NCBI GenBank assembly: GCA_040386275.1
Contig: JAZKFU010000003.1
Location: 112,554-172,382, forward strand
Reading direction: 5' to 3'
Origin: Patescibacteria group bacterium
GTDB lineage: Bacteria > Patescibacteriota > Minisyncoccia > Phycocordibacterales > UBA918
Length of the DNA stretch: 59,829 nucleotides
The notes beneath the pieces were generated by a model that saw only the letters and a list, made by a program, of their open reading frames with translations, was not told the origin of the DNA and did not search any database. Made by a program: the position numbers and the translations under genes. Each line of letters opens with the position of its first letter. Positions within the stretch are counted from its first letter, which is position 1. Below are positions 300-13,293 of this stretch, piece after piece.

Positions 300-1697
300 T
301 TAATTACGGGCGCGCGAACCTAATATATGTTTGGATAAAATTTTATAGGTATCGTAGTCAAAAGGTAGTTCAATCTCCTCTTCAGAATGTCCCTCCGGTG
401 TGTAGTTAATTATTTTTTTAATTTGCCACTGATCGACCAGATAGGCCACACCTTCTGACGCCTGTTCATCCTCAGGAATAGTCACGGGGCCTTTGTAGGG
501 CCAGGAACGCAATTTCATTTTTTTAAAAGCCGTATCAAATCGCAGATTGTAGACAGCGGCATCTTCTAACCCGATACAGGCTCCTTTACAGCGACCTAGC
601 TGAAACTGAAAGCACGCGCCTTTCCCTGACTCCAGCCCTAGTAATTTTGGACACAAGGAATGTTCTTTAATGAGCGTTTCAAGACGCGCCTTTCCCGCAC
701 TCATGGTTTTAAACACCCCGTTGATTGTTTCATCATAGGAAAAAGTATCGTTAGCTTGATACGAAAGCGTTCCTGATTTGTAACCGGCAGGAGTATCAAT
801 AACTTTGAACACCACTAAGCGCGAAGTTTTTCGGAGGCGTCGATTATATTCTGGGAGCATTTCCTTTATATATTTTGACTCTTTAAGTAACGCAGAAAGC
901 TCGCCACTGGTTACCTCATGTTCAACATACGCCACCTTAGAAGTAAGCGCGCGCTCTTTGGGGGTGGTATGTGACTGACCAAAATGAGATCGAACCCGAC
1001 TTTTTATATCAACGCTCTTGCCAATATATAACAACCTATCTTCAGCATCGTAAAAAAAATAGACACCTGGTTGATGCGGTAATGATTCAATAACTTTCTC
1101 ATCAACTGTATCAGGTAAAATATAATTTACGAGCGCGGAGGTAATTACTTCTTCAATCCGTTCACGTGTGTGGGATTGTTGTGCACTTTGCAAAAACAAT
1201 ACTAACGCTTCACAATCTGCATAGGCCCGGTGACGCGCAGTCACTACAAGTCCATGCGCTGCAATAATATTTTCTAAACTATGACTTTTTTGACGTGGAA
1301 ACAGTTGCCGTGAAATTTTCACCGTACATAATGTTTTGGCATTAAAGGTAATACCTAACCGTTTGAATTCAGTTTTAATAAACCCATAATCAAACCGTGC
1401 ATTGTGGGCTACAAAAATTGCCCCTTCAAGCAACTGTTTAATTTCTAAGGCCACCTCATCAAACGTTGGCTTATCGTGCACATCTGAATTGGAAATGCCA
1501 GTAATGGTTGTGATGAAAGGACTAATTGATACTCCAGGATTAATTAACGTTTCGTATCGATCCGTAATGACGCCGTCTTCAACGCGGATAATTCCAATTT
1601 CAATAATTTGACCATAGCGTGCATGTGAGCCGGTAGTTTCAACATCAACAAACACATAGGTATCACCAGTGAGACTTTCAACATCGCGAACAATCAT
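300..1697 (-). CDS. DEDDh 3'-5' exonuclease (DnaQ/PolIII epsilon-like) fused to a GIY-YIG UvrC/Cho-like nuclease domain
   Basis: VFVDVETTG, VAHNARFD, HRAYADC (Exo I-III); PGVY...LLYIGKS...RVRSHF (GIY-YIG); Cys cluster CFQFQLGRCKGAC. Confidence 0.9.
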   Translation of the reverse strand: MIVRDVESLTGDTYVFVDVETTGSHARYGQIIEIGIIRVEDGVITDRYETLINPGVSISPFITTITGISNSDVHDKPTFDEVALEIKQLLEGAIFVAHNARFDYGFIKTEFKRLGITFNAKTLCTVKISRQLFPRQKSHSLENIIAAHGLVVTARHRAYADCEALVLFLQSAQQSHTRERIEEVITSALVNYILPDTVDEKVIESLPHQPGVYFFYDAEDRLLYIGKSVDIKSRVRSHFGQSHTTPKERALTSKVAYVEHEVTSGELSALLKESKYIKEMLPEYNRRLRKTSRLVVFKVIDTPAGYKSGTLSYQANDTFSYDETINGVFKTMSAGKARLETLIKEHSLCPKLLGLESGKGACFQFQLGRCKGACIGLEDAAVYNLRFDTAFKKMKLRSWPYKGPVTIPEDEQASEGVAYLVDQWQIKKIINYTPEGHSEEEIELPFDYDTYKILSKHILGSRARN

Positions 1698-1919
1698 ATA
1701 CGGGTATAGTAATCTAATTTAAAAACATATCAATTTGCAATATTTTCATTTCAAAAAATTGACTTTTTTGTCATTTTTCGTAACTGAATATGTTACTAAA
1801 TTATAACATTATTTTTATATTTCCCTAAAAACCGTGATATTTTTGTCCACAAAACTTTACAAAAAATTAGTTTTACGGTATTGACATTCCCCCACTTAAT
1901 TGGAGGGTATACTGTAGCG

Positions 1920-3485
1920 GTGAATAAAGTTCTTTCAATTTTTATTGTTCCAAATAGTCTCGTATTAATAATAATAGCAGTGGCGAGTATATTTGCAGCA
2001 AACACTTCATTATCAATTTTTGGTATTCCGGTAAGTACATTTGATTTTTCAACCAAAGCAAATGCCACCACCCTCTCTACCACTTTAAATCAAGTTGCAC
2101 TTTTACCTACCGTTTCTACCAGCAGTTCATCTCTTTTGTTACAAAATTTTACGATTGCCTGGCCAACTCAAAATCAGCCCGATGCCAACCTTCATACCTT
2201 TGAAGGAAAAATTGGTACCGTTTCGGAATCGCAATATTTAATGTTTTGGCAAGTAGGAGGCGGGGTATATACCCGCATGACCCCCAAGCAAAGTGGAGCA
2301 ACCAGCGTGTTTGCCAGCATAAACTTTTCGAGCTGGAAATGGCTTGGCGACGGCCCCTATGACCTTTCCTTTATCGTGCAAGACAGAAGTGGTAAAGAAT
2401 TGTTTAGAAAAAAAATCGCCATCAAGCGCTACACCGTTAATGGACAAACCATTATGTCATTAGCCGGGTCACAACCAACAACTGCTACTCCTAGTACCTC
2501 TGCTCCCGCGCCTACTACTTCCACTCCCGCGCCTGCTCCGATAGCAATTGTTGCCACCACTACCAATACAACCCCAACACCTATCACTACTACAACAACC
2601 GGAAAACGATTTGCCGGCAAAACTCTCTACCTCCACCCAAATCAAGCAACGGTTCAAAAACAAATCTTTGATGCTAATAACAACATTACTCAAAGTGCTT
2701 TAATTAATGTCATTGCTAAACAACCCCAAGCCGTTTGGCTTACCCGAGGTAATGACCAGGACCTACAGTTGGTACGGGACATTATGGCTAAATCAACTAC
2801 CACTGCCATTCCGACATTTGTAATTTACGCTATCCCGAACCGAGACTGTAATTCATATTCTCGTGGTGGTTTAGGAAATGGCACACTGTATCTCGACTGG
2901 ATTAAAAAGCTAGCTGAAACCGTTAGTACTAAACCGTCCATTATAATCTTTGAACCTGATGCTCTTCCCCAAATTTCTTGCCTCACCACGAGCGATCAGA
3001 CAACTCGACTAGCACTCATAAAAGAATCCTTACGTGTCTTGGGGAGTAAAAGTGCGACCGCAGTCTACCTCGATATTGGACACCCCTTTTGGCTTTCTCC
3101 AACTGTAGCGGTTGACCGTTTACAAAAAGCTGGTGTGAGCTACGTGCGTGGGTTCTCATTAAATGTTTCCAATTTCTTTACTAATGCAGAAAACATTACC
3201 TACGGAGAACAAATCTCGGCCAAACTCAACGGCATGCCGTATGTGATTGACAGCAGTCGTAATGGTAAGGGCGCTACCCTCACTAAAGAGTGGTGTAACC
3301 CCGCTGGTCGCGCGTTAGGAACCACCCCTCAATTTGTCACCACCCATCCTCGGGTTGATGCCTATCTCTGGATTAAACACCCGGGCGAGTCTGACGGAAC
3401 CTGTAATGGTGGACCAAGAGCCGGCGCCTGGTGGTTAGAGAATGCACTTTCCTATGTACGGGAAACCCAGCGACTCACCAATTAA
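1920..3485 (+). CDS. secreted/anchored glycoside hydrolase family 6 (cellulase-like) with N-terminal accessory domain and Thr/Pro linker
   Basis: VIYAIPNRDC, IIFEPDAL, VYLDIGH, GFSLNVSNF, VIDSSRNG, WCNPAGRALG, WIKHPGESDGTC are GH6 motifs. Hydrophobic N-terminus. GTG at 1920 follows TATACT. Confidence 0.88.
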   Translation: MNKVLSIFIVPNSLVLIIIAVASIFAANTSLSIFGIPVSTFDFSTKANATTLSTTLNQVALLPTVSTSSSSLLLQNFTIAWPTQNQPDANLHTFEGKIGTVSESQYLMFWQVGGGVYTRMTPKQSGATSVFASINFSSWKWLGDGPYDLSFIVQDRSGKELFRKKIAIKRYTVNGQTIMSLAGSQPTTATPSTSAPAPTTSTPAPAPIAIVATTTNTTPTPITTTTTGKRFAGKTLYLHPNQATVQKQIFDANNNITQSALINVIAKQPQAVWLTRGNDQDLQLVRDIMAKSTTTAIPTFVIYAIPNRDCNSYSRGGLGNGTLYLDWIKKLAETVSTKPSIIIFEPDALPQISCLTTSDQTTRLALIKESLRVLGSKSATAVYLDIGHPFWLSPTVAVDRLQKAGVSYVRGFSLNVSNFFTNAENITYGEQISAKLNGMPYVIDSSRNGKGATLTKEWCNPAGRALGTTPQFVTTHPRVDAYLWIKHPGESDGTCNGGPRAGAWWLENALSYVRETQRLTN

Positions 3486-4963
3486 TTAGTCAAAGTATAG
3501 TCCATGTCGTACCGTAACCGGTAGACGTAGACATGCACATCACGAGAAAATTCTAGACTCTCTTCACGGTCAAAAGTAGCATCAAAATAACTTTTGATGG
3601 AATCTTCATACCCTTGATCATAACTTAACACTAAATATAATCGTTCATGCGTTCCGGCAATAGCCGCCACCTCATTGGGCAAATTATCGATATCAAAGTC
3701 AGGAATAATTTTTTCGGTATTACGATTCCATTGCGGTAAGGTGGTGATTTTTGCCGGGCCAGTGTAATAATATAAAATCGGATACACAATAAATGGTGCT
3801 GATACTACGACGATATCTTCTCCACCCACAGCCGAACTTAAATACGAACTAGCCGCACTATAGTTTTCCTTATTAGGCGTATCTGGAGATTTTAACTGCA
3901 CCACCAACCCTAGTGCCATACACAGAACTAAGGTTGTCTTGTAGAAAAATGCGGCGGTAGGTGCGTAGACATCTCCTAACCGAGCAATCAAAAGAAACAG
4001 GGGCGGTAACACAATAATCAAGTACCGACTTAAAAATAACGGTTGGTACAATACACTAATCAGATACGCGCATAGTAGCGGGACCAGTGTAGCTACCCAC
4101 AAAAATCGTGTCTCAGGTCGGGGGGCGCTTTTTTTATTAAGCCCTAAAAATAAGAGCACTAGAAGGATGGGCCAGCACGCCAAAATAATACTGTTAATAG
4201 CATCAACTTGAAAGCCAAAAAAGAAATTTGAAAATACGTTAAAAATATCAATACTCGTTGGTGGATTTAAAATTGGCTGTGACTCCTCCACCCCTTCCCC
4301 ACTAAACACTTTAAGTAACCAGGGCAAAAAAGCAGCAATCACTAAGAGTACAATTGCTAAAAACGGGAGCAGTTGTCCTTGTGTAAAATTTTTGCGCATC
4401 GTCCCAAAAAAGAATACAAAGTGTGAGAGTAAAACGAGAAAGAAAAAGTAGTGGGTATAAATTCCTAAAAGACAACACACCGCGTACGCCCACCACGTTA
4501 GCGTGGTTGGTTCACGCATGAGCCTGAGGTAGAAAAAATGAACGAGAATGGTTACTAAAATCAACATCGTGTACATTCTAATTTCGCTACTGAACCACAC
4601 CAAAAATGGTGAGATGCCGTACAGTGTCGTTGCAAAAAAGGCGGTATTCCGTCCGTAAATATATGCTCCCAGCCCATAAAAAACCGGCACCGAAATAAGA
4701 TAAAACACAAATGAGAACGCTCGACTAATGAAAATTGAATTATCAAACACTACTTGTACGCCATGCACTAACAAGTGATACAACGGCACGTGAACATTTT
4801 GTGAAAGTGAAATTAGTAGTTCTCGAATCGAGAAACTGGTTTGCCATAAACTTTGTGACTCATCAAGACGTATTGATAACGGCAGGCTGTAATTGATAAA
4901 TACCCACACCGCCAAAAGCTGCAGGAACATAATCCAGAGGTAATGTTTATCAAATGATTTCAT
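3482..4963 (-). CDS. GT-C fold membrane glycosyltransferase (GT39/PMT_2/ArnT-like)
   Basis: SIRLDESQS (DE motif in first loop), HVPLYH, SPFLVWFSSEIRMY, LGIYTHYFF, many TM helices. Confidence 0.85.
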   Translation of the reverse strand: MKSFDKHYLWIMFLQLLAVWVFINYSLPLSIRLDESQSLWQTSFSIRELLISLSQNVHVPLYHLLVHGVQVVFDNSIFISRAFSFVFYLISVPVFYGLGAYIYGRNTAFFATTLYGISPFLVWFSSEIRMYTMLILVTILVHFFYLRLMREPTTLTWWAYAVCCLLGIYTHYFFFLVLLSHFVFFFGTMRKNFTQGQLLPFLAIVLLVIAAFLPWLLKVFSGEGVEESQPILNPPTSIDIFNVFSNFFFGFQVDAINSIILACWPILLVLLFLGLNKKSAPRPETRFLWVATLVPLLCAYLISVLYQPLFLSRYLIIVLPPLFLLIARLGDVYAPTAAFFYKTTLVLCMALGLVVQLKSPDTPNKENYSAASSYLSSAVGGEDIVVVSAPFIVYPILYYYTGPAKITTLPQWNRNTEKIIPDFDIDNLPNEVAAIAGTHERLYLVLSYDQGYEDSIKSYFDATFDREESLEFSRDVHVYVYRLRYDMDYTLTN

Positions 4964-6507
4964 AGGTGGAACGATAATATTTGCGCTAATTTGTGTTTAA
5001 AACTGACTCGTTTTACTTTAAAATATTCTCTTCCCGGTAACGCCGCATACATAAACGGTGCGTAAATTGTTACATAGAGTAAACTCCAGGTAGCGTTGGT
5101 GGTAAGTGAAGGCGTAATCCCACTTTTACTGTAGGAATACAAAATTCCAATAACAGTTAAAATTATGTAATAGAGATGTGGTCGCACTAAGGAAAAAAAG
5201 TTACCTTCTACCTGGACTTTAGAAGTAATCGCAAAACCGGTTTTTTTACCACGCAGTACTTCGAAAAACGCGACTATATGAATCCACCAAGATGACATCG
5301 AGAACGATAGCGCTCGAAACGAGTACGTATAGTTACTCGCTGTCTGGAGATTAAAGAGCGTCAATATGATGTACGGCATAAAGGCAATAGCCAGGATCAT
5401 CGTTGAGGTTTTAAATGGTACCGCTCCCGTGTAGAAAAATATTAGTGGCAACAATGAATTAATAAATATAATTAACCCTGACAAATAATATCCAGCCGAG
5501 GCTAAATATTGGAATCGTTGCGACCACGCGAGTCCACGACGAAATAGTGGATTATAGTTTATAAACACTTCAAGACTGCCCTTAGTCCACCGCAACTGTT
5601 GCTTGTAATACGAAAGAAAATCTTCCGGGGCCAACCCTTCGGCGAGAACTTCTGGCACATACACTGATTTCCAACCTTTTTCATGCAAAAACATACCGGT
5701 GATAAAATCTTCGGCAATATTATCCGCGCACATTCCACCTACTTCAAGTAAGGCATCCCGTCTAATGACCATATTGGTACCCGCCATGGTCACTGAATTT
5801 AATCTATTTTTACCCATGCAGATAGTCCCAAAAAATATTTGTTGTTGATCCCAGGCTCCCCTCGTCACCGTATTTTTTTTATAATTTTTATAGTATTGAG
5901 GAGTCTGCACAAACCCAACATTTTCATCAACAAAATACCCGATGGTTTTGCGTAAAAAATCCTTTTTAGGAACGTGGTCCGCATCAAAAATTACCACAAA
6001 GGGTGAACGGGTAACGGTGAGCGCATGGTTAATATTCCCTGCCTTGGCCCCGCCAGGAATTCTGCGGGTAATCGGATTAGCACCTAACATGCGGGCCATA
6101 TTATTTATTTCAGGCCAATTATCTTTACCCGCCACGTAGCCATCGTTCAAAATATGCACTTTGAATTTTGGGTAATCCATATCCAACGCAGCAGAGACCG
6201 TTTGCGCCACCAACTCTACTGGTTCCCCCGCTACTGTAATGAACACATCAACCATCGGTAAAAAGCTGGCATCAGTTTGTGCCTGGTAGTTTGTTTCCCA
6301 TACCGTGTAGAGATGCGAGAAACATTGCCATAAATAAAACGCTTGTCCAAAAAGCAAAATTGCAAATAAATAGATATTACTAATTTCAAACCAGACCAAA
6401 ATGACGATAAAGTACACCAGTAACAAAATGCCGTTTACGATAATTAACCCCTTTGAGACGTGAGGATGTAAGAAAGCTTGCGCGTGATTGAGGGAGGTAT
6501 TTTTCAT
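4960..6507 (-). CDS. cellulose-synthase-like processive GT2 (BcsA/CesA-like, no PilZ domain)
   Basis: DVFITVAGEP, KAGNINHAL, IFDADH, VQTPQ, AEDF, QQLRW (D,D,D,QxxRW) plus flanking TM helices. Confidence 0.88.
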   Translation of the reverse strand: MKNTSLNHAQAFLHPHVSKGLIIVNGILLLVYFIVILVWFEISNIYLFAILLFGQAFYLWQCFSHLYTVWETNYQAQTDASFLPMVDVFITVAGEPVELVAQTVSAALDMDYPKFKVHILNDGYVAGKDNWPEINNMARMLGANPITRRIPGGAKAGNINHALTVTRSPFVVIFDADHVPKKDFLRKTIGYFVDENVGFVQTPQYYKNYKKNTVTRGAWDQQQIFFGTICMGKNRLNSVTMAGTNMVIRRDALLEVGGMCADNIAEDFITGMFLHEKGWKSVYVPEVLAEGLAPEDFLSYYKQQLRWTKGSLEVFINYNPLFRRGLAWSQRFQYLASAGYYLSGLIIFINSLLPLIFFYTGAVPFKTSTMILAIAFMPYIILTLFNLQTASNYTYSFRALSFSMSSWWIHIVAFFEVLRGKKTGFAITSKVQVEGNFFSLVRPHLYYIILTVIGILYSYSKSGITPSLTTNATWSLLYVTIYAPFMYAALPGREYFKVKRVSFKHKLAQILSFHL

Positions 6508-8057
6508 ATAGTAGTATCAGTTAAAAACCGTTCGGTGTAGTTCGGTAAGCGATTGTTATAAAACGCTATCCCAAACCAACCCCAGTTACTTCCGTAGTAG
6601 CCTGGATCAGTCACCCATAAAAATTTATTGCGATCGTACTGGTTGATTATTTTTGTATTGTAAATAGCTTCGGCAGTCTCCGGGTGCATAATCGCAAAAT
6701 ACGGTAATGTCCCCGCATACATTTCCATTTTTTCTTCGGCTTCAATAATTACCCCATCATGACTCACTACTGAGGGGAGATATCCATTTTCTAACCACAG
6801 TCGTTCCAAATACCAAAAGTCTCGCAGTGCGGTTAAGGCCCGTGGGTCCTTAAACCACTTATAATCAAGCGCAATTCTCCAGGGGGTTCGCAAAGCGTCA
6901 TACCCGAAATTTGTATTTAGATTGGGCTGTACCGCCGCTCTGATTTCGCCGGTATCACGATTTACTTCAATCCAATTAGGGGTCAGCCACACCGAGTGTG
7001 ATTTATCTAACGCCAAGCGTGCACTGCGCTCATATATTTCATATGAACTGTCGACCAGACCATCCCAATTATGGGTGGTATCAATTTGCGCAAAGACTTT
7101 AAAGGCGTAGGGCGCTAAATACGACGGGTTAATAATGAGCCACGGATCGGTAGAATCTTTTTCGCGGTTATTAGCCATTAAATACGGCACACCATCAATC
7201 TCTACTACTTCATTATCCCAAACACTATTTATAATGGCTCGACCTTCATTCAGATAAGTTTCATTTCCCCACCGGCCGTAGCCTAAAAATAATGCTAGAG
7301 CAATATCAATATCACTATCTGAGGCAGTATTTTCTCCCCCAATATTATTAAGGACGCCATAACTACCATCGGGTAATTGTCCGAACTTCCACGATAGCAA
7401 AAAGTCATCCCGTAATAAATTATCTTTGGTCCAATCCCACGTAAATTCAAACGTTTCGATATCGTCCATAAATACCGCGCGTAACATACTGTAACTTTGA
7501 CCTTCAGAAGTCGTAATATTTCCCTCCTCTTTGTCTAAAGTTCGACCTGAGGTAGGTTCGATATACACGACTTTGTATTCCGTCCACATTGCTTCCAAGG
7601 CATCAATCGCACTGTACAGCGGAGGTTGATAGACACGCTCTTTCGTGACGCTTAAGTACAGTACCGTACCGGCAATTCCTAAAAAAACTAATGTGGCCAG
7701 CAAAAAACTACGTTCGGGCCACAAGGATTTGGTGGGCGGTACAATTGCAGACTCTTCAAGCAGCGCCGCATTGGGTGCTTTGTAGTAAATAAATAAATTG
7801 CGAAGATAAATGAGTAAACTTAATCCTTGACCTACAATAAAAACAATATCTTGTTTATAGATAGCATAGATTAAAATCATCAACGCTCCGAGGATACTGA
7901 GGTACCAAAATGAAACCGGAATAGTGGTTCGTTTATTTTTTTCTGAAGCTAGTAGCTGCACGACAAACCGTAAAAAAAATATAAACTGGGCGGTGAAGCC
8001 AAAAATTACCCAGGGATTTGCCAGTGATTCAAATAACGGTATCAGGACATTAGACAT
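6504..8057 (-). CDS. fusion of lipid-A-biosynthesis N-terminal (LAB_N) membrane domain and glycoside hydrolase family 8 (BcsZ-like endoglucanase)
   Basis: N-term GFTAQFIFFLRFVVQLLASEK...IPVSFWYLSILG...DIVFIVGQ (LAB_N); C-term TTSEGQSY, ASDSDIDIALAL, INPSYLAP, GYDALRTPWR (GH8). Confidence 0.85.
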   Translation of the reverse strand: MSNVLIPLFESLANPWVIFGFTAQFIFFLRFVVQLLASEKNKRTTIPVSFWYLSILGALMILIYAIYKQDIVFIVGQGLSLLIYLRNLFIYYKAPNAALLEESAIVPPTKSLWPERSFLLATLVFLGIAGTVLYLSVTKERVYQPPLYSAIDALEAMWTEYKVVYIEPTSGRTLDKEEGNITTSEGQSYSMLRAVFMDDIETFEFTWDWTKDNLLRDDFLLSWKFGQLPDGSYGVLNNIGGENTASDSDIDIALALFLGYGRWGNETYLNEGRAIINSVWDNEVVEIDGVPYLMANNREKDSTDPWLIINPSYLAPYAFKVFAQIDTTHNWDGLVDSSYEIYERSARLALDKSHSVWLTPNWIEVNRDTGEIRAAVQPNLNTNFGYDALRTPWRIALDYKWFKDPRALTALRDFWYLERLWLENGYLPSVVSHDGVIIEAEEKMEMYAGTLPYFAIMHPETAEAIYNTKIINQYDRNKFLWVTDPGYYGSNWGWFGIAFYNNRLPNYTERFLTDTTI

Positions 8058-9003
8058 TTTCTTGGATGTTATGGACTGAGTAATTCATACGGTTATGGAC
8101 TTTGTAATACGTTTTGGCGAGCAAATCAGTCACAATACCAATGGTAAAAAATTGTATACCCGTGAGAACAAAGGTAACTGCAATTAAGGGCCATATTTTA
8201 TTAGCGAGACTGACATCAAAAAATAATCGCACGATAAACAGCGCAACCAGCAATACGGCACCGACAAAAATCAGCATCATGCCAAAACCCCCCAATATAT
8301 GGAGGGATCGGGCAGAATAGCGAGACCAAAATGAAACAAAAATCATATCAACGAGACTTTTAAAGCCCCGAATAATATTTCCGTATTTACTTGAACCGTA
8401 AATTCGCGGACGATGATTGACAATCACTTCGGTTATCTTAAATCCACGTTCGGCTAAAATTGCCGGTATAAAGCGATGCATTTCACCGTACAAATCTGCT
8501 TCTTCAAAACATTCTCGTCGATAGGCCTTTAGGGCACAGCCCGAATCATGAATGGTGTCGTTAAAGAAAAATTTACGTAACTGATTTGCTACTCGAGAAG
8601 TAATTTTTTTTGACCATGTATCCTGACGCTTTTTGCGCCAACCACACACTACGTCATACCCTTCTTCGATTTTTGCTAACAATTTTGGAATATCCGCTGG
8701 ATCATTTTGCAAATCTCCATCCATCGTCACAAAAATATCTCCGGCGGCATTTTTAAAGCCAGCATCAAACGCAGCTGTTTGTCCGTAATTTTTTCGTAAG
8801 GCAATTAATTTTAAAGGTCGTAACTCCTTACATTTTTTATACGTCGCATCAGTGGAACCATCATCAATAAAGACAATTTCCCACTGGTGCGGGAGGGGTG
8901 TTAACACCCGAACCAATTCTTGATGGAGCAAGGTAACATTTCCTGCTTCGTTATAGACAGGAACTATCACCGACAATGAAGGCAGAGAGTTTTTTTCAAA
9001 CAT
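8050..9003 (-). CDS. DPM1/ArnC-like polyprenol-phosphate glycosyltransferase (GT2) with two C-terminal TM helices
   Basis: SVIVPVYNE, FIDDGSTD, RKNYGQTAA, TMDGDLQNDP, DSGCALKAYR, GEMHRFIP. Confidence 0.92.
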   Translation of the reverse strand: MFEKNSLPSLSVIVPVYNEAGNVTLLHQELVRVLTPLPHQWEIVFIDDGSTDATYKKCKELRPLKLIALRKNYGQTAAFDAGFKNAAGDIFVTMDGDLQNDPADIPKLLAKIEEGYDVVCGWRKKRQDTWSKKITSRVANQLRKFFFNDTIHDSGCALKAYRRECFEEADLYGEMHRFIPAILAERGFKITEVIVNHRPRIYGSSKYGNIIRGFKSLVDMIFVSFWSRYSARSLHILGGFGMMLIFVGAVLLVALFIVRLFFDVSLANKIWPLIAVTFVLTGIQFFTIGIVTDLLAKTYYKVHNRMNYSVHNIQENV

Positions 9004-9137: not shown

Positions 9138-9653
9138 TTAGTTTGTGTATTGCTGAATTTCACGAGCATTTGTTTTTTCAAACACTTCTCGTGCATTAGG
9201 ATTATCAGTCCGAGCGGCCACTAAAATTTCCCCTTTTTCAATATATGATTGATACATGTTGGCATCAGTCTCTTGCACTCCCATATTTGTTAAAGCTCCA
9301 ATCAAACCTCCGGCTGCTGCTCCCGTTGCTGCTCCCGCTACAGTGGTAGCTGCCGCTCCGGTTAGACCTAATGCCGCTGCTAGCGGTCCCGCCACGAACA
9401 AAGATCCGAGACCCGGCAAAATTCCGTTTGCTACTACCAATCCGGCAATACCGCCAATAACTGCTCCAACAGTACCGCCATCAACGGCACCTTGAGCCAT
9501 GGATTCACCAGTAGTACCATCGGTCATTTCACCTTTTTTATCTGAATACACGTATGAAATATCGTCTTGTTGTATTCCTAGCGCAATAAGTTGTTTAATT
9601 GCTGATTCAGCTTCAGCGCGAGTCTGATAAACACCTAAGGTGACTGTGTTCAT
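9138..9653 (-). CDS. general stress protein / glycine-zipper membrane protein (YflT-like N-terminus)
   Basis: TLGVYQTRAEAESAIKQL, GAVIGGIAGL...IPGLGSLFVAGPLAAALG...GGLIGALTNMGV; likely start at 9653. Confidence 0.75.
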   Translation of the reverse strand: MNTVTLGVYQTRAEAESAIKQLIALGIQQDDISYVYSDKKGEMTDGTTGESMAQGAVDGGTVGAVIGGIAGLVVANGILPGLGSLFVAGPLAAALGLTGAAATTVAGAATGAAAGGLIGALTNMGVQETDANMYQSYIEKGEILVAARTDNPNAREVFEKTNAREIQQYTN

Positions 9654-9813
9654 ATTGTATTTGAAATTAACGTTGATTATAAGCTTCATTTCATTATAGC
9701 AAGCAGGGCTACCTGAGTCAATAAAAGTTATTAATTATTGTCAACATATTTTGCCAAGTAGTATTATGTATCTTATAACTTTTGAAAAACTAGTCCAGCA
9801 GAGGGCCTAACTA

Positions 9814-9843
9814 TTGACAATACGGCAATTATAGTGTTATAAT
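9814..9843 (+). promoter_or_regulatory. sigma70-type promoter
   Basis: TTGACA (9814-9819), 18 nt spacer, TG-n-TATAAT (9838-9843), upstream of the GH gene at 9972. Confidence 0.65.
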
Positions 9844-9971: not shown

Positions 9972-11027
9972 ATGTTTTCATTTCCAATCGTCCCCCCAAA
10001 ATATTTACTCACTTCTTTTTTAAAAACGGTGGTATTTTCTATTGTTATTTTATTACTCATTACCATTGGATTATTGGCTTGGATCAACACCTTGCGGGCT
10101 GATGCCAAAACCGTTTGGGGCGTAGATTATTCCGAGAGTCAGGCTATTTATCTGGGTCTAAACCCCGCTGAAACCTATTCAGCCATTATTGACGACCTCG
10201 GAGCTAAACATATTAAAATTCACATTAATTGGAATGCCACTGAACCAAATCGTAGTCAATTTGACTTCACCTCTCTTGATCGCATGGTAAAAGAAGCTGA
10301 ACAAAAAGATGTACAGTTAATTTTGGTAATTGGATTAAAAACGGGACGTTGGCCAGAATGTCATACCCCTTACTGGTTCAAACAAATTGCACCGGAAAAT
10401 CGTGAAGAAGAAATCATCCGCTACATTAGTACTATTGTAGGTCGATATAAAAATTCTGACGCAGTAGCCTTTTGGCAAGTTGAAAATGAAGCGTTAATTG
10501 AGTTTGGAACTTGTTCAGATTGGTACTACGATCAAGGAACTGATTTACTTAATGCTGAAGTGGCCGCGGTACGCGCCCTTGACCCTGAGCGAAAAATTAT
10601 TATTTCCGACTCAGGCGAACTCTCTACCTGGAGTGAGGTGGCAGAAATTGGTGACGTGGTGGGAGTAACGATGTACCGTAGTAGTTGGGATGCAACGGAA
10701 AAAACTTTTGGACTTAACCCGTACACATTCTTGTCTCCGGAATTCTATTCTGCCAAAGCTGCCTTTATCGAATCATATTACGGTAAACCAGTAATCAGCG
10801 TGGAATTACAAGCCGAACCCTGGGCCTCAAAAGGCCTCGCCGAAGCTAGTTTGCGCGAGCAAACCCTCTCTATGAACTCTGAACTCTTTTCAGAAAACGT
10901 GGAGTTCGCCAAACAAGCTGGTTTGGGAGCCTATTATTTCTGGGGAGCAGAATGGTGGTACTGGATGAAAACTAAACACAATCAACCCGAAATTTGGGAC
11001 AAAGCCACTCTATTATTCGCAGAATAA
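9972..11027 (+). CDS. membrane-anchored clan GH-A glycoside hydrolase (GH5/GH42-like TIM barrel)
   Basis: N-terminal TM; WNATEP, WQVENE (acid/base Glu), ISVELQAEPW (nucleophile), YFWGAEWW. Confidence 0.75.
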   Translation: MFSFPIVPPKYLLTSFLKTVVFSIVILLLITIGLLAWINTLRADAKTVWGVDYSESQAIYLGLNPAETYSAIIDDLGAKHIKIHINWNATEPNRSQFDFTSLDRMVKEAEQKDVQLILVIGLKTGRWPECHTPYWFKQIAPENREEEIIRYISTIVGRYKNSDAVAFWQVENEALIEFGTCSDWYYDQGTDLLNAEVAAVRALDPERKIIISDSGELSTWSEVAEIGDVVGVTMYRSSWDATEKTFGLNPYTFLSPEFYSAKAAFIESYYGKPVISVELQAEPWASKGLAEASLREQTLSMNSELFSENVEFAKQAGLGAYYFWGAEWWYWMKTKHNQPEIWDKATLLFAE

Positions 11028-11700: not shown

Positions 11701-13293
11701 ATGAAAAAAATAACTCCCGCCACCCTTACTCGTCTGATGTATTTTATTACAGTTTTTCTCACCGGGGCGGCCGTACTCATATTTGAGGTAGCGGCCGTGC
11801 GCATGTTGGCTCCGTATTTTGGAAGCTCTTTATATGTGCTATCGAGCGTATTAACTACCATCTTGGCAGCGTTAAGTGTGGGTTATTACTTTGGTGGACG
11901 AATTGCTGATCGACTACCCCACCCTACTATTTTGTATCTCATCATTGGTAGTGCCGGTTTAATAATGCTCTTTTTACAAGTACTCGCGACATACACCCTA
12001 CCGCTATCCAATCAGATTTTTTCAATCACGACCGGACCGCTGGTACTTTCGCTCCTGCTGTTTTTTATTCCCGCGTTTTTACTAGGCATTGATTCACCAT
12101 TTGTTATTAAATTACTCACCCAAAATAATACTAACGCGGACCATAACGGTGCGCTGGTTGGATCTATATTTTTCTTTAGTACTATCGGAAGTATCGTGGG
12201 AAGTATCTCAGCGGGCTTCATTTTAATTCCGTACCTTGGATTAACCTTGACCATACTCCTCGTATCGGTTGTGTTAATTGCCTGGGCCTTGATTGCAGCT
12301 TATATAATTGCCCGCAGTAACCCCCAGCCACTCACTTCGTACAGTTTGCCTCTACCTTTACCGTTGCTTGTTATTGTCGGCATCGTGAGCGCTGGTTATT
12401 TTAGTTTTATAACGCTCACCGCGGACCCAATTAAAACCACTGATGTCACCCTTTACCAAGCTGATGGATACTACTCCAACCTTCATATTTTTGACCGCAC
12501 CATGAACGGAACGGTCTTTCGATTCCTAAAAAATGACGTGAACAACTCATCGGCAATTATTCCGGGTTCACCTGCGCCCGTGTTTATGTATACCCAACTT
12601 GCAAATTTATTTACTAGCCACAATAAAGACGCTCAGTCGTACCTGGTGTTAGGTGGTGGGTCATACACTATTCCCCGCTTTATTCATCACGAGCACCCCA
12701 CAATGAAAATTGATGTGGCTGAAATAGAGCCGAGTTTATACTCGCTCGCGCATACGTATTTTGAATTACCTACCACACCACTTATTTCTAGCTACGAGCA
12801 AGACGCTCGGGTTTTTTTACAATCAACCAGCACCCAGTATGACGTGATTTTTTCTGATGTGATGAACTCAGGATTATTTATACCTCCCCATGTAGCGACG
12901 GTAGAATTTTTTGAATCCTTTAAAGCGCGTTTAGCTCCTGATGGTATTGCCATTTTAAATTACATTGGCTCTCTTAACACCAGTTCAATGAGTCTCACTG
13001 GTTCTATGATCAATACTATTTCTACGGTATTTCCAAACTACCAACTTCTCGCACTACGAGGGGTTGATTATAAGGGCATGCAAAACATGATATTTATACT
13101 ACGCCACGATGGCCAGCCTATTACTATTCCAGACCAAGAAATAATTGATTACTTTAGTAGTACCACGAAATCTGCTCCTTCATTACTAGTCAACAAAAAT
13201 AGCTTACAGCTTAACAACCAAACACTTTTTACTGACAATAAATCAAATATCGAGCCACTGATTGTGCGAGAATTTTCAAAAGCTCGATTATAG
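11701..13293 (+). CDS. fused membrane domain / spermidine synthase-like methyltransferase
   Basis: GAAVLIFEVAAVRMLAPYFGSS TM block; LVLGGGSYTIP, DVAEIEP, DARVFL, YDVIFSD, TVEFF. Confidence 0.88.
   Translation: MKKITPATLTRLMYFITVFLTGAAVLIFEVAAVRMLAPYFGSSLYVLSSVLTTILAALSVGYYFGGRIADRLPHPTILYLIIGSAGLIMLFLQVLATYTLPLSNQIFSITTGPLVLSLLLFFIPAFLLGIDSPFVIKLLTQNNTNADHNGALVGSIFFFSTIGSIVGSISAGFILIPYLGLTLTILLVSVVLIAWALIAAYIIARSNPQPLTSYSLPLPLPLLVIVGIVSAGYFSFITLTADPIKTTDVTLYQADGYYSNLHIFDRTMNGTVFRFLKNDVNNSSAIIPGSPAPVFMYTQLANLFTSHNKDAQSYLVLGGGSYTIPRFIHHEHPTMKIDVAEIEPSLYSLAHTYFELPTTPLISSYEQDARVFLQSTSTQYDVIFSDVMNSGLFIPPHVATVEFFESFKARLAPDGIAILNYIGSLNTSSMSLTGSMINTISTVFPNYQLLALRGVDYKGMQNMIFILRHDGQPITIPDQEIIDYFSSTTKSAPSLLVNKNSLQLNNQTLFTDNKSNIEPLIVREFSKARL

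Follow-up and report, generated by a model that had tools for sequence, protein, structure and literature searches.

The window, i.e. the whole 59.8-kb stretch of DNA analysed, carries four minus-strand genes whose ORFs overlap by 8, 4 and 4 nt (Table 1), with the junction sequences read directly as ATGTCTAA (8 nt), ATGA (4 nt) and ATGA (4 nt). Both this arrangement, described in a first-pass annotation as overlaps of 4-8 nt, and the domains assigned there to the four products were borne out, the former by the ORFs and junctions, the latter by domain searches. A convergent GH6 cellulase gene, missed in that annotation, meets the GT-C gene stop to stop with a 4-nt overlap, while a YflT-like gene lies directly upstream of the GT2 gene on the same strand. 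According to TM prediction, every glycosidase of the window has a membrane anchor instead of being secreted. A run search found the locus sequence only in DNA metagenome runs.

Table 1. Features of the locus, with positions given in the window.
Feature	Position	Strand	Remarks
Membrane-anchored GH6 endoglucanase, convergent	1881..3485	+	534 aa
ArnT-like GT-C glycosyltransferase	3482..4963	-	493 aa
Short BcsA-like synthase-translocase without PilZ	4960..6507	-	515 aa
LAB_N-GH8 fusion	6504..8057	-	517 aa
Fourth TM helix (aa 117-137) and extracytoplasmic GH8 domain (aa ~150-505) of the fusion	6504..7709	-	
LAB_N domain, three TM helices, SemiSWEET-like bundle	7773..8015	-	aa ~15-95 of the fusion
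ArnC/GtrB-class GT2	8050..9003	-	317 aa
YflT-like small protein, glycine-zipper TM region	9138..9689	-	PF11181, 3e-7
Membrane-anchored clan GH-A hydrolase (GH10/PslG-like), divergent	9972..11027	+	351 aa; PF00331, 5e-13

As for the individual products, the 317-aa GT2 matches PF00535 (1e-33), the PgfS model (3e-43) and the ArnC model (1e-55, although under the NCBIfam equivalog cut-off, 189 vs. 529 bits), and aligns over its full length to the structures of ArnC (9hwj, 7e-49) and GtrB (5ekp, 1e-33). With a predicted GT-A domain in the cytoplasm, followed by two TM helices at the C-terminus (aa 240-258 and 273-291), it is a putative polyprenyl-phosphate sugar synthase.

In the 517-aa fusion, LAB_N (PF07578, aa 20-88, 5e-27) precedes GH8 (PF01270, aa 157-431, 3e-36). 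The GH8 domain also matches the BcsZ model (1e-38, under its equivalog cut-off) and, in the PDB, CelA (1cem, 2e-21) and BcsZ (3qxf, 3e-19). Its catalytic motifs SEG (184), DSDID (247) and YDALR (386) are kept; it is a predicted extracytoplasmic endoglucanase, analogous to BcsZ, and the fourth TM helix is probably its former signal anchor. Concerning LAB_N, SemiSWEETs make up six of the nine PDB matches of the family profile (A4), the best being a weak, full-length match to 4x5m (E=0.0086). The family exists in one-repeat and two-repeat forms, the latter being fused elsewhere to PMT_2/PMT and GT87 GT-C enzymes, which backs the earlier suggestion that LAB_N is tied to GT-C lipid-sugar pathways. 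We know of no flippase activity for LAB_N, which is a candidate here for flipping or delivering the lipid-linked sugar. An assembly error as the source of the fusion was ruled out, since the same fused ORF recurs in five clusters (77-98% identity) among NCBI, ENA and Logan records.

The 515-aa synthase matches the CelA model TIGR03030 (6e-82, likewise under the equivalog cut-off) and the BcsA structures 4hg6 and 7lby (1e-55 over aa 46-461), in an alignment that runs through the BcsA channel and the gating-loop motif. The NDG, DxD, ED, QxxRW (QQLRW, residues 303-307) and FxxTxK motifs are kept, and N121 D122 G123, K155-N158, D175 D177 H178, E266 D267, Q303 Q304 R306 W307 and F425 T428 K430 are invariant among 24 homologues, while this family has T-M-C/A-G-T-N where BcsA has its FFCGS acceptor motif. 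In a tree built with BcsA and BgsA-like enzymes, the members of the family form a clade of their own (monophyletic, 100/100), whose sister group is made up of BcsA and the BgsA-like enzymes together. BcsA and the rhizobial BgsA-like enzymes are equally far from the family (25-27% identity), so that the linkage of the glucan is not fixed by phylogeny. The earlier view of a processive, BcsA-type enzyme, as opposed to a non-processive GT2, is borne out by the motifs, the aligned channel and this sister position. As that view also held, PilZ, BcsB and BcsC are absent: the domain search gave no PilZ match in the synthase, and searches of the entire window and of 85 related loci turned up neither a BcsB nor a BcsC homologue at E<=0.01. 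A riboswitch search of the window found none either, and it is solely from the missing PilZ and the missing riboswitch in the window that the synthase would be taken as c-di-GMP independent. Its polymer is most likely a beta-1,4-linked glucan, as hinted by a GH8 that is always there, a GH6 at about 50% of the loci and, once, a GH5 cellulase instead.

The 493-aa GT-C has a PMT_2 match (1e-6; 29.4 bits vs. a cut-off of 26.1 bits) and no PF02366 (PMT) match in the domain search. Its AF2 model (pLDDT 88.4, pTM 0.88) has ArnT (5f15) as best Foldseek match (E 2.4e-8, TM 0.62), followed by ALG12/ALG9, STT3, Pmt4 and PglB. Some 10-11 TM helices precede a C-terminal alpha/beta domain (aa ~360-493), which is extracytoplasmic and has many invariant Tyr and Trp residues. 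Across 36-42 sequences, with 31-76% identity to the GT-C of the window, the loop after TM1 has invariant R32 L33 D34 E35 and Q37 (R-L-D-E-x-Q), other invariants being R313 Y314, Y398-400, W412 and Y448/Q450/G451 of the YDQGY stretch. This invariant loop and the ArnT-like fold argue for a probably catalytic, ArnT-like enzyme.

Wherever a related locus lies on a contig of sufficient length (76 of 76 loci), the genes for GH8, synthase and GT-C adjoin one another, an arrangement far beyond chance. Two gene orders exist, the synthase and GT-C genes adjoining in both; reverse look-ups from two GT-C homologues agree with this linkage. The three proteins are correlated in their pairwise distances (Spearman 0.69-0.71), and their trees agree on the actinobacterial clade. 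Standalone GH8 orthologues (~400 aa, ~47% identity) adjoin the synthase in all the related loci. The conserved unit is thus GH8, short BcsA-like synthase and GT-C. Its carriers are Patescibacteria as well as some cultivated Actinobacteria, including Klenkia, Geodermatophilus and Quadrisphaera, and are thus not limited to ultrasmall bacteria.

In 38 of 82 loci, DPM1-class GT2 genes are found no more than 2.5 kb from the trio, at a density of 0.108/kb vs. 0.004/kb further out (~25-fold, p = 5e-12); at about half of the loci, a lipid-P-sugar synthase gene is missing from the neighbourhood. These GT2s are of three non-orthologous types (ArnC-like, DPMS with GtrA-TM, and ~250-aa proteins), a pattern that shows repeated recruitment of lipid-P-sugar synthases beside the trio in different lineages. 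Orthologues of the ArnC-like GT2 adjoin the trio only in loci L001, L002 and L006, all close relatives of the window, and apart from L091 LAB_N is likewise confined to these. In the metagenome contig L091 the order GT2, LAB_N, GH8 is unfused: LAB_N is a standalone 97-aa gene ending in TAG, and the GH8, with its own signal anchor, starts about 10 nt past that stop. From this restricted and, in L091, unfused occurrence, the ArnC-like GT2 and LAB_N are seen as a recent, lineage-specific addition to the core. In the lineage of the window, these donor-supply genes would have been inserted upstream of GH8, the LAB_N stop codon then being lost and LAB_N fused to GH8. While the co-conservation (surveyed here as synteny), the domains and the processive synthase of the first-pass annotation stand, its picture of cellulose genes embedded in a polyprenol-P-sugar/GT-C module is therefore reversed: as GT-C belongs to the core (76/76) and GT2 and LAB_N came later, there was no pre-existing sugar module around the cellulose genes.

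Among the neighbours, GH6 is a frequent accessory of the cassette, found within 3.5 kb in 28 of the 56 loci with enough flank, and a GH5 cellulase takes its place at one locus. In the window it consists of an N-terminal TM helix (aa 17-35), an unannotated ~200-aa domain, a Pro/Thr linker and a catalytic domain (PF01341, 6e-56) that matches best, among PDB structures, the GH6 cellulase entry 1uoz/1up0 (8e-65), presumably M. tuberculosis Cel6. An S/T/P-rich bitopic protein, with a signal peptide and a C-terminal TM helix, is encoded immediately ahead of GH8 at ~25 of ~70 loci (~35%), and none was found in the window. The YflT-like protein is conserved upstream in L001 and L006 only, with a weak match in L014. 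A promoter-like site (9721-9693; 11/12, extended -10) precedes its gene, in a region where the counts of such sites do not exceed those of shuffled sequences; the gene may be the first of the transcription unit, its membership being uncertain. The 351-aa GH-A hydrolase (best PDB matches: GH10 xylanases, 1e-11, and PslG, 5e-10), conserved in L001, L006 and L033, is a possible accessory of uncertain relevance. GH113 (which we take to be a mannanase family) and GH10/PslG-like hydrolases adjoin some of the loci.

Taken together, the trio can be read, with a probability of about 0.45, as a synthase-dependent system in which GT-C would add a lipid-carried sugar outside the membrane, giving a decorated cellulose-like polymer. 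The BcsA-like enzyme would polymerise a beta-glucan from UDP-sugar at the cytoplasmic face and extrude it through its own TM channel, without PilZ gate or BcsB. GH8, held at the outer face by its TM anchor (plus LAB_N in the lineage of the window), would trim or release the chain as BcsZ does, probably assisted by the neighbouring membrane-anchored GH6. In the cytoplasm, the ArnC/GtrB-class GT2 would load a monosaccharide onto polyprenyl phosphate, the SemiSWEET-like LAB_N module would flip or hand over the lipid-linked sugar, and GT-C, with its invariant Asp34-Glu35, would transfer it on the outer face, most probably onto the emerging glucan. The glucan linkage, the lipid-linked sugar, the flippase role of LAB_N and the GT-C acceptor, hence decoration of the glucan by GT-C, are what we infer from sequence. 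No description of the GH8, short BcsA-like synthase and GT-C arrangement was found in the literature searched, and the trio seems to represent an undescribed route to a cellulose-like surface polymer that is probably also decorated with sugar.

Since the Pfam family of GT-C is PMT_2 and its structural neighbours include Pmt4, STT3 and PglB, it might instead be a protein O-glycosyltransferase, acting via polyprenyl-P-sugar on Ser/Thr-rich envelope proteins rather than on the glucan; the S/T/P-rich protein upstream of GH8 and the long Pro/Thr linker of GH6 are plausible targets. This is rather unlikely: ArnT and then ALG9/12, which have lipid-linked acceptors, are closer in fold than the PMTs, the PMT family itself is not matched, the window has no S/T/P-rich small protein, and GT-C strictly accompanies the synthase, whereas GH6 and the S/T/P-rich protein are optional. 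Doubtful, and compatible with any reading of GT-C, is a polymer that would not be cellulose-like (mixed-linkage, beta-1,3, hetero-glucan or mannan-containing), the glycosidases serving other purposes, e.g. feeding on environmental cellulose. The separate, equidistant clade of the synthase, its replaced acceptor motif and the GH113 and GH10/PslG-like neighbours are consistent with it. However, every locus that extends to the GH8 side has GH8 adjacent, just like BcsZ in bcs operons, the commonest accessory is GH6, to our knowledge a strictly beta-1,4-glucanase family, with a GH5 cellulase as its one substitute, and the glycosidases of the window are anchored.

GT-C is also obligate with a synthase lacking BcsB and BcsC in lineages which we take to be monoderm, without outer membrane, as would suit an enzyme that caps, primes or anchors the glucan ends (e.g. 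to a lipid or wall acceptor) and keeps the polymer cell-attached. Such a role is improbable, as the known donors of GT-C enzymes are lipid-P(-P)-sugars and we know of no such enzyme with a synthase-made polymer as donor; the recruited GT2s being monosaccharide-loading enzymes, decoration fits better than anchoring. Lipid-linked intermediates have, in favour of anchoring, been proposed before for cellulose synthesis (review PMC8892547). It is still less probable that GT-C is a non-catalytic stand-in for BcsB, which would stabilise or activate the synthase and guide the chain, the lipid-P-sugar genes being unrelated neighbours. Canonical BcsA requires the TM anchor of the BcsB missing here, and the synthase and GT-C genes of the window overlap; against this stand the invariance of the catalytic-type Asp-Glu and other loop residues, the enrichment of lipid-P-sugar synthase genes beside the trio and the LAB_N/GT-C fusions elsewhere.

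Compared with known systems, the decorated-polymer reading resembles the BcsA-BcsB-BcsZ-BcsC cellulose secretion systems (types I-III; review PMC8892547) in several respects: the processive GT2 is of BcsA type, carries the D,D,D,QxxRW motifs and the FxxTxK gating-loop motif and has a TM channel of its own, a GH8 endoglucanase gene lies beside the synthase gene, and polymerisation is coupled to export. In contrast, the trio system lacks PilZ, BcsB, BcsC and BcsQ/E/F/G, its GH8 is membrane-tethered, its synthase is of a separate clade (26-27% identity to E. coli and C. sphaeroides BcsA), and its invariable ArnT-like neighbour is part of no described bcs operon type. With the apical glucan system CslA-GlxA-CslZ of Streptomyces (PMC11022532, PMC9040799) it shares, by description, a BcsA-like synthase, a Gram-positive type envelope, the absence of BcsB/BcsC, an endoglucanase and a dedicated extracytoplasmic partner. 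That partner is the copper radical oxidase GlxA in Streptomyces and a GT-C here.

Three-component periplasmic glycosylation systems (GtrA/GtrB/GtrC, ArnC/ArnEF/ArnT, CsbB/GtcA/YfhO, GacI/J/K/L) likewise combine a polyprenyl-P-monosaccharide GT2, a small flipping membrane protein and an outward-acting GT-C, and the GT2 and GT-C of the window resemble ArnC/GtrB over the full length and ArnT in fold, respectively. Here, however, the small component would be a SemiSWEET-like LAB_N, fused to a glycoside hydrolase, instead of GtrA, ArnE/F or a Wzx-type protein, the acceptor would be a synthase-made glucan instead of O-antigen, lipid A, teichoic acid or rhamnan, and GT-C is tied to the synthase even without a nearby GT2. 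Post-synthetic modification of cellulose, as pEtN-cellulose by BcsG or acetylated cellulose by WssFGHI/CcsHI, also relies on operon-encoded extracytoplasmic enzymes that modify the nascent chain with a lipid-derived or membrane-delivered donor; the modification here would be a glycosylation by a GT-C enzyme, of which, for bacterial cellulose, we know of no case and found no description in the literature searched. Finally, the tunicate CesA and GH6 genes of bacterial origin (PMC10986139) likewise combine cellulose synthase and GH6 cellulase; those are eukaryotic genes obtained by horizontal transfer, whereas the GH6 of the present locus is a separate, convergent gene.

Four overlapping genes on the minus strand, encoding a DPM1-like GT2, a LAB_N-GH8 protein, a CesA-like GT2 and a GT39/ArnT-like protein, had been proposed in the first-pass annotation, and both the run and its domain calls hold: the ORF listing and a direct reading of the junctions give successive stop/start overlaps of ATGTCTAA (8 nt), ATGA and ATGA, and Pfam and NCBIfam confirm each of the four domains. 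A fifth gene, convergent with the run and coding for a GH6 protein, had been overlooked; its stop codon overlaps that of the GT-C gene by 4 nt. Promoter and terminator consensus counts in the region were no greater than in shuffled sequence, Rfam returned only tRNAs and no c-di-GMP riboswitch, and a search for RNA runs carrying the window sequence found none. The DNA occurs in watershed and groundwater metagenomes, and the nearest public relative (locus L006), at 98% amino-acid identity, is a MAG contig labelled 'Patescibacteria group bacterium'.

Positions of the genes and other features discussed in the text, in the window unless a related locus (L number) is named
Feature	Position	Strand	Basis or remark
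DnaQ-type exonuclease + GIY-YIG fusion	300-1697	-	
GH6 gene, convergent	1881-3485	+	PF01341 6e-56; PDB GH6 cellulase entry 1uoz 8e-65
GH6 protein, first 240 aa, with unannotated region at aa ~40-235	1881-2600	+	no Pfam match
GT-C, 493 aa	3482-4963	-	ORF listing; PMT_2 just over threshold
BcsA-like synthase, 515 aa	4960-6507	-	ORF listing; CelA/BcsA models; QQLRW
LAB_N-GH8 fusion, 517 aa	6504-8057	-	ORF listing; LAB_N (aa 20-88), GH8 (aa 157-431)
ArnC-like GT2, 317 aa	8050-9003	-	ORF listing; PF00535
YflT-like stress protein	9138-9689	-	
Promoter-like site before the YflT-like gene	9721-9693		
Sigma-70-type consensus ahead of the GH-A hydrolase gene	9814-9843		12/12, extended -10
Clan GH-A hydrolase (GH10/PslG-like)	9972-11027	+	
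MFS transporter/spermidine synthase fusion	11701-13293	+	NF037959, 1e-67
GT2 + GtrA/DPMS TM + cytidylyltransferase-like triple fusion (Paceibacteria)	L012:4932-6509		
Genes for large proteins close to the cassette, and for a GH5 cellulase, in which the unannotated GH6 region recurs weakly	L007:1047-2795; L014:2247-4118; L075:11145-12662 (GH5 cellulase)		
Ser/Thr/Pro-rich protein, examples	L003:9494-9973; L172:3639-4241; L173:3503-4177; L009:368-1012; L075:6300-6824; L080:6207-6824		no Pfam match

The conservation of the arrangement was followed by scanning one genome per GTDB species with a synthase profile; at least 566 stretches matched, of which the best 80 were kept, two further loci from contig look-ups were added, and six-frame ORFs were annotated with the window proteins. 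As a whole, the GH8, synthase and GT-C genes (hereafter the trio) are adjacent on one strand in 76 of the 76 loci long enough, the six remaining loci without a full trio all being cut by contig ends. Of the 76, 66 read GH8-synthase-GT-C and nine read GH8-GT-C-synthase, and the last one has its GT-C called in two pieces; look-ups from two GT-C homologues recover the same neighbourhood. Since this adjacency extends across all the loci long enough, the GT-C is part of a cellulose-type core. The co-conservation sought by a synteny survey is thus borne out for the trio, and the idea that cellulose genes had been inserted into a separate GT-C module is abandoned.

The synthase aligns over aa 46-461 with the R. 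sphaeroides and E. coli BcsA structures (1e-55; including 4hg6 and 5ej1), a stretch that spans the GT domain, the interface helices and the TM channel. Its NDG (N121-D122-G123), FDADH (D175-A-D177), AED (A265-E266-D267), QQLRW (Q303-Q-L-R-W307) and gating-loop motif FAITSK (425-430) stand opposite DDG, FDADH, TED, QRGRW and FAVTAK of BcsA. Neither the GT2 catalytic motifs nor F425, T428 and K430 of the gating loop vary among 24 homologues that are 53-74% identical to the window protein. The CelA and BcsA models match at 6e-82 and 1e-61, with scores under the equivalog cut-offs (TIGR03030, 275.9 vs. 699.1 bits; PRK11498, 208.6 vs. 992), and identity to BcsA is 26-27% over 481-487 aligned columns. 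As the motifs are kept and the alignment runs through the TM channel, the protein is, judging by its sequence, a processive BcsA-type enzyme, in agreement with the first-pass view of a polymer-making rather than a non-processive GT2; that it makes a beta-glucan is very probable. With no PilZ, such scores and such low identity, it is not a canonical BcsA. A cellulose-degradation locus was rejected because these catalytic and channel motifs are intact.

Also upheld is the reported absence of PilZ, BcsB and BcsC. Neither Pfam nor NCBIfam finds a PilZ domain in the synthase, which ends about 55 aa past the last predicted TM helix, and E. coli plasmid BcsB and BcsC used as phmmer queries gave no match at E<=0.01 in the window and 85 related loci. 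All 120 homologues among the matches listed measure 468-549 aa. In a neighbour-joining tree with BcsA and BgsA-like references, the family is monophyletic (100/100) and sister to a clade (100/100) that unites BcsA with rhizobial, HlyD-associated BgsA-like enzymes, the latter named by context only (an S. meliloti pSymB-type replicon, and A. fabrum pAt beside an HlyD-family gene). The linkage is therefore not fixed by phylogeny; with GH8, GH6 and GH5 enzymes as company, it is probably beta-1,4. GH6 genes lie within 3.5 kb of the trio in half (28/56) of the loci having enough flank, and a GH5 cellulase takes this place in one locus, L075.

Concerning the GH8 domain, PF01270 matches at 3e-36 and the BcsZ model at 1e-38 (132.8 bits, vs. 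an equivalog cut-off of 299). The catalytic motifs known from CelA and BcsZ (SEG, DxD, YDA) are kept: SEG (E185), DSDID (247-251) and YDALR (D387) align with SEG, DADED and YDATR of C. thermocellum CelA (1cem). Because a fourth TM helix (aa 117-137) stands before it, the domain is predicted to face outwards, in all likelihood as a glucanase. As for the unannotated part of the GH6 protein, which extends from the TM anchor to a Pro/Thr linker, it may represent, as far as the sequence tells, an undescribed carbohydrate-binding or wall-spanning domain.

The GT-C scores only 29.4 bits with PMT_2 (cut-off 26.1), and PDB sequence searches with the single sequence and with a profile returned no match. 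An AF2 model built from 42 homologues (pLDDT 88.4, pTM 0.88) was informative: Foldseek placed ArnT (5f15) first (E 2.4e-8, TM 0.62), followed by ALG12/ALG9, STT3, Pmt4, PglB and the mycobacterial arabinosyltransferases, with 26 GT-C structures in total at E<=1e-3. Directly after TM1, in the first extracytoplasmic loop, lies R32-L33-D34-E35-x-Q37; L33, D34, E35 and Q37 are invariant in the 36 locus-derived sequences, with R32 nearly so, and in 42 database homologues the stretch R32 through Q37 does not vary. GT-C enzymes such as ArnT, PMT and PglB have their catalytic acid(s) at this position. Many invariant Tyr and Trp residues are spread over the C-terminal extracytoplasmic domain (aa ~360-493). 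Altogether, a catalytic GT-C with a lipid-linked donor is predicted with good, slightly lesser confidence than the glucanase. No domain fusion of the Rosetta-stone kind was found in the longer homologues P0284, P0317 and P0251, and apparent synthase/GT-C fusions in high-GC actinobacterial loci proved to be artefacts of longest-ORF calling.

The window GT2 (PF00535, 1e-33) matches the ArnC model at 1e-55 and PgfS at 3e-43, both below the equivalog cut-offs; with 188.7 bits vs. 529 for ArnC, it is not ArnC itself. Residues 1-313 align with residues 1-313 of ArnC 9hwj (7e-49) and also with GtrB 5ekp (1e-33), both C-terminal TM helices included, these two helices falling within aa 240-291. ArnC and GtrB load a sugar onto undecaprenyl phosphate, and the window protein is very probably likewise a lipid-P-sugar synthase, of the ArnC/GtrB/DPMS class.

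Orthologues of this ArnC-like GT2 adjoin the trio only in L001, L002 and L006. A DPM1-class GT2 of one kind or another is nevertheless found within 2.5 kb of the trio in 38 of the 82 loci, vs. two in the zone further out, i.e. a density of 0.108 vs. 0.004 per kb (binomial p = 5e-12). Three non-orthologous kinds are involved: a DPMS-type enzyme fused to a GtrA/DPMS TM domain (19 loci), a protein of about 250 aa whose best structural relatives are GtrB, DPMS and ArnC (16 loci, the actinobacterial ones included) and the ArnC-like form (3 loci). Such independent recruitment of different GT2s provides the strongest, if indirect, evidence of a polyprenyl-P-monosaccharide donor for the GT-C in the setting of this synthase. 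One paceibacterial locus (L012) has a triple fusion of GT2, GtrA/DPMS TM and cytidylyltransferase-like domains between GH8 and GT-C.

LAB_N, fused to GH8 in the window (PF07578, 94.4 bits vs. a cut-off of 26.7), is a widespread domain, matched by 2034 representative clusters at E<=1e-3, for which a literature search returned no paper discussing it. It occurs as a single repeat (~95-150 aa), as a tandem repeat (~205-240 aa) and as the N-terminal module of larger proteins. Among the PDB matches of the family profile, six of nine are SemiSWEET transporters; the best of these alignments is weak (E = 0.0086) and end-to-end, and the single/tandem-repeat pattern parallels SemiSWEET vs. SWEET. Within one set of proteins (P0366, P0368, P0436, P0382, P0395, P0480, P0424/P0460), the fusion partners of tandem LAB_N are GT-C enzymes (PMT_2/PMT, GT87) and an LpxL-like lipid A acyltransferase, those of single-repeat LAB_N tyrosine-phosphatase-like and SdiA-regulated-like domains. 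LAB_N gives the impression of a small module of general use for membrane transport of lipid-linked substrates. Flipping or presenting of a lipid-linked sugar is plausible, given the SemiSWEET-like profile and the GT-C fusions, and the domain is tentatively regarded as a flippase or delivery module, at somewhat less than even odds. This gives LAB_N a testable role, that of a SemiSWEET-like partner of GT-C enzymes.

Next to the trio, LAB_N is restricted to L001, L002 and L006, the close relatives of the window. A search near distant homologues of the ArnC-like GT2 (80 metagenome loci recovered with the window GT2) and, using a broad LAB_N HMM, in other trio loci found it only in the window lineage and in L091, one of these 80 loci. 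There, a GT2 (59% identical) is followed by a standalone 97-aa LAB_N ending in TAG and, about 10 nt on, by a GH8 with its own signal anchor. This unfused order shows the ancestral state of the window fusion, which therefore arose through loss of the LAB_N stop codon, the former GH8 signal anchor persisting as TM4.

From these predictions, a model in five steps can be proposed. The short synthase would polymerise and extrude a beta-glucan, probably beta-1,4, which GH8 would trim at the outer face; the ArnC-like GT2 would produce a polyprenyl-P-sugar, LAB_N would assist its passage across the membrane, and the GT-C would transfer the sugar on the outside, with the nascent glucan as the most likely acceptor. 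This is the best-supported reading of the locus as a whole, with a probability of about 0.45. Its last step is no firmer: the glucan is a putative acceptor, favoured with reserve.

The main rival is that the GT-C is a protein O-glycosyltransferase. It draws on the Pro/Thr linker of the window GH6 and on a low-complexity protein of 150-250 aa, encoded just ahead of GH8 in roughly one locus in three (~25/70) and absent from the window, which consists of a signal peptide, a Ser/Thr/Pro-rich spacer, a weakly conserved aromatic stretch and a C-terminal TM anchor. This protein could be an O-glycosylation target, or else a BcsB-like TM partner. Both it and GH6 are optional, in contrast to the absolute pairing of synthase and GT-C, which argues against protein as the acceptor. 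A purely structural, BcsB-like GT-C is unlikely with a catalytic loop that is invariant. Finally, the GT-C might, with low probability, cap or anchor the ends of the glucan. Transfer onto the growing glucan is the reading we retain. Taken further, it would yield a glycosylated (branched) cellulose made by coupled synthase and lipid-carrier routes, a new architecture of cellulose-type secretion and, considering that the cassette has been exchanged with the phylum of the known hosts, a possible episymbiont attachment polymer; this fuller version is, for now, rather unlikely.

Several neighbouring genes recur with the cassette. A membrane-anchored clan GH-A hydrolase, divergent from the operon, is kept beside it in L001, L006 and L033, with a GH113 gene in the equivalent neighbourhood of L173; the sigma-70-type site ahead of the hydrolase gene matches the consensus fully, in a region where shuffling the sequence yields as many such sites. 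On the other side, past the GH6 gene, L001 and L006 share the DnaQ/GIY-YIG fusion as a conserved neighbour, and L016 and L063 have it at a few kb from the cassette. The GT2 gene is directly preceded, on the same strand, by that of a YflT-like stress protein with a long Gly/Ala-rich glycine-zipper membrane segment. A strong promoter-like site, of a type no more frequent than in shuffled sequence, stands before this YflT-like gene, which may be co-transcribed with the four-gene run. Beyond the hydrolase gene lies the MFS transporter/spermidine synthase fusion.

The cassette is carried by MAGs of Saccharimonadales, Paceibacteria, Doudna-, Levyi-, Davies-, Blackburn- and Gracilibacteria. Seven loci are from isolate genomes: Klenkia (2), Geodermatophilus (3), Quadrisphaera (1) and a strain labelled 'Streptomyces sp. 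NP160'. In the actinobacterial loci (L052, L054, L056, L057, L059, L061 and L064), the trio is often accompanied by GH6 and the ~250-aa GT2. Pairwise distances of the trio proteins correlate (Spearman 0.69-0.71), and separate trees of the three proteins each unite the actinobacterial sequences in a single clade, whose sister is the Saccharimonadales locus L055 (together with L046 for the GT-C). Hence the cassette travels as a whole. The pattern suggests horizontal transfer at cassette level between Saccharibacteria and Actinobacteria, the latter being the phylum of known Saccharibacteria hosts.

An obligate GT-C neighbour of a cellulose-type synthase would be unexpected for the cellulose or EPS field. 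To our knowledge, the described bacterial cellulose modifications (phosphoethanolamine, acetyl) and accessory subunits (BcsB/C/Z, GlxA) are all unlike a GT-C partner, and the envelopes and attachment mechanisms of Patescibacteria are almost unknown. If the GT-C decorates the glucan, the product would be a new chemical class of bacterial cellulose, the locus a new junction of the two main envelope glycan routes, synthase-dependent and lipid-carrier-dependent, and the cassette a concrete, conserved surface-polymer system for Patescibacteria. Its presence in cultivable Geodermatophilus, Klenkia and Quadrisphaera opens the GT-C question to ordinary genetics and carbohydrate chemistry. In the accessible parts of the literature, most subscription journals lying outside the search, no description was found of a cellulose synthase/GT-C partnership (including by word searches of the bcs review PMC8892547 and the EPS-operon survey PMC7112194) or of cellulose synthesis in Patescibacteria.

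Compared with known systems, the whole resembles a bcs system (synthase and GH8) joined to a three-component glycosylation system of the Gtr/Arn type. It departs from the former in that the window synthase, unlike canonical BcsA, has neither PilZ nor BcsB, scores below the equivalog level and falls outside the BcsA clade. With regard to the latter, which comprises a GT2, a flippase and a GT-C, the window has the GT2 and the GT-C without a classical flippase: no GtrA, ArnE/F or Wzx-type protein was found alongside them, and LAB_N is the candidate third component.
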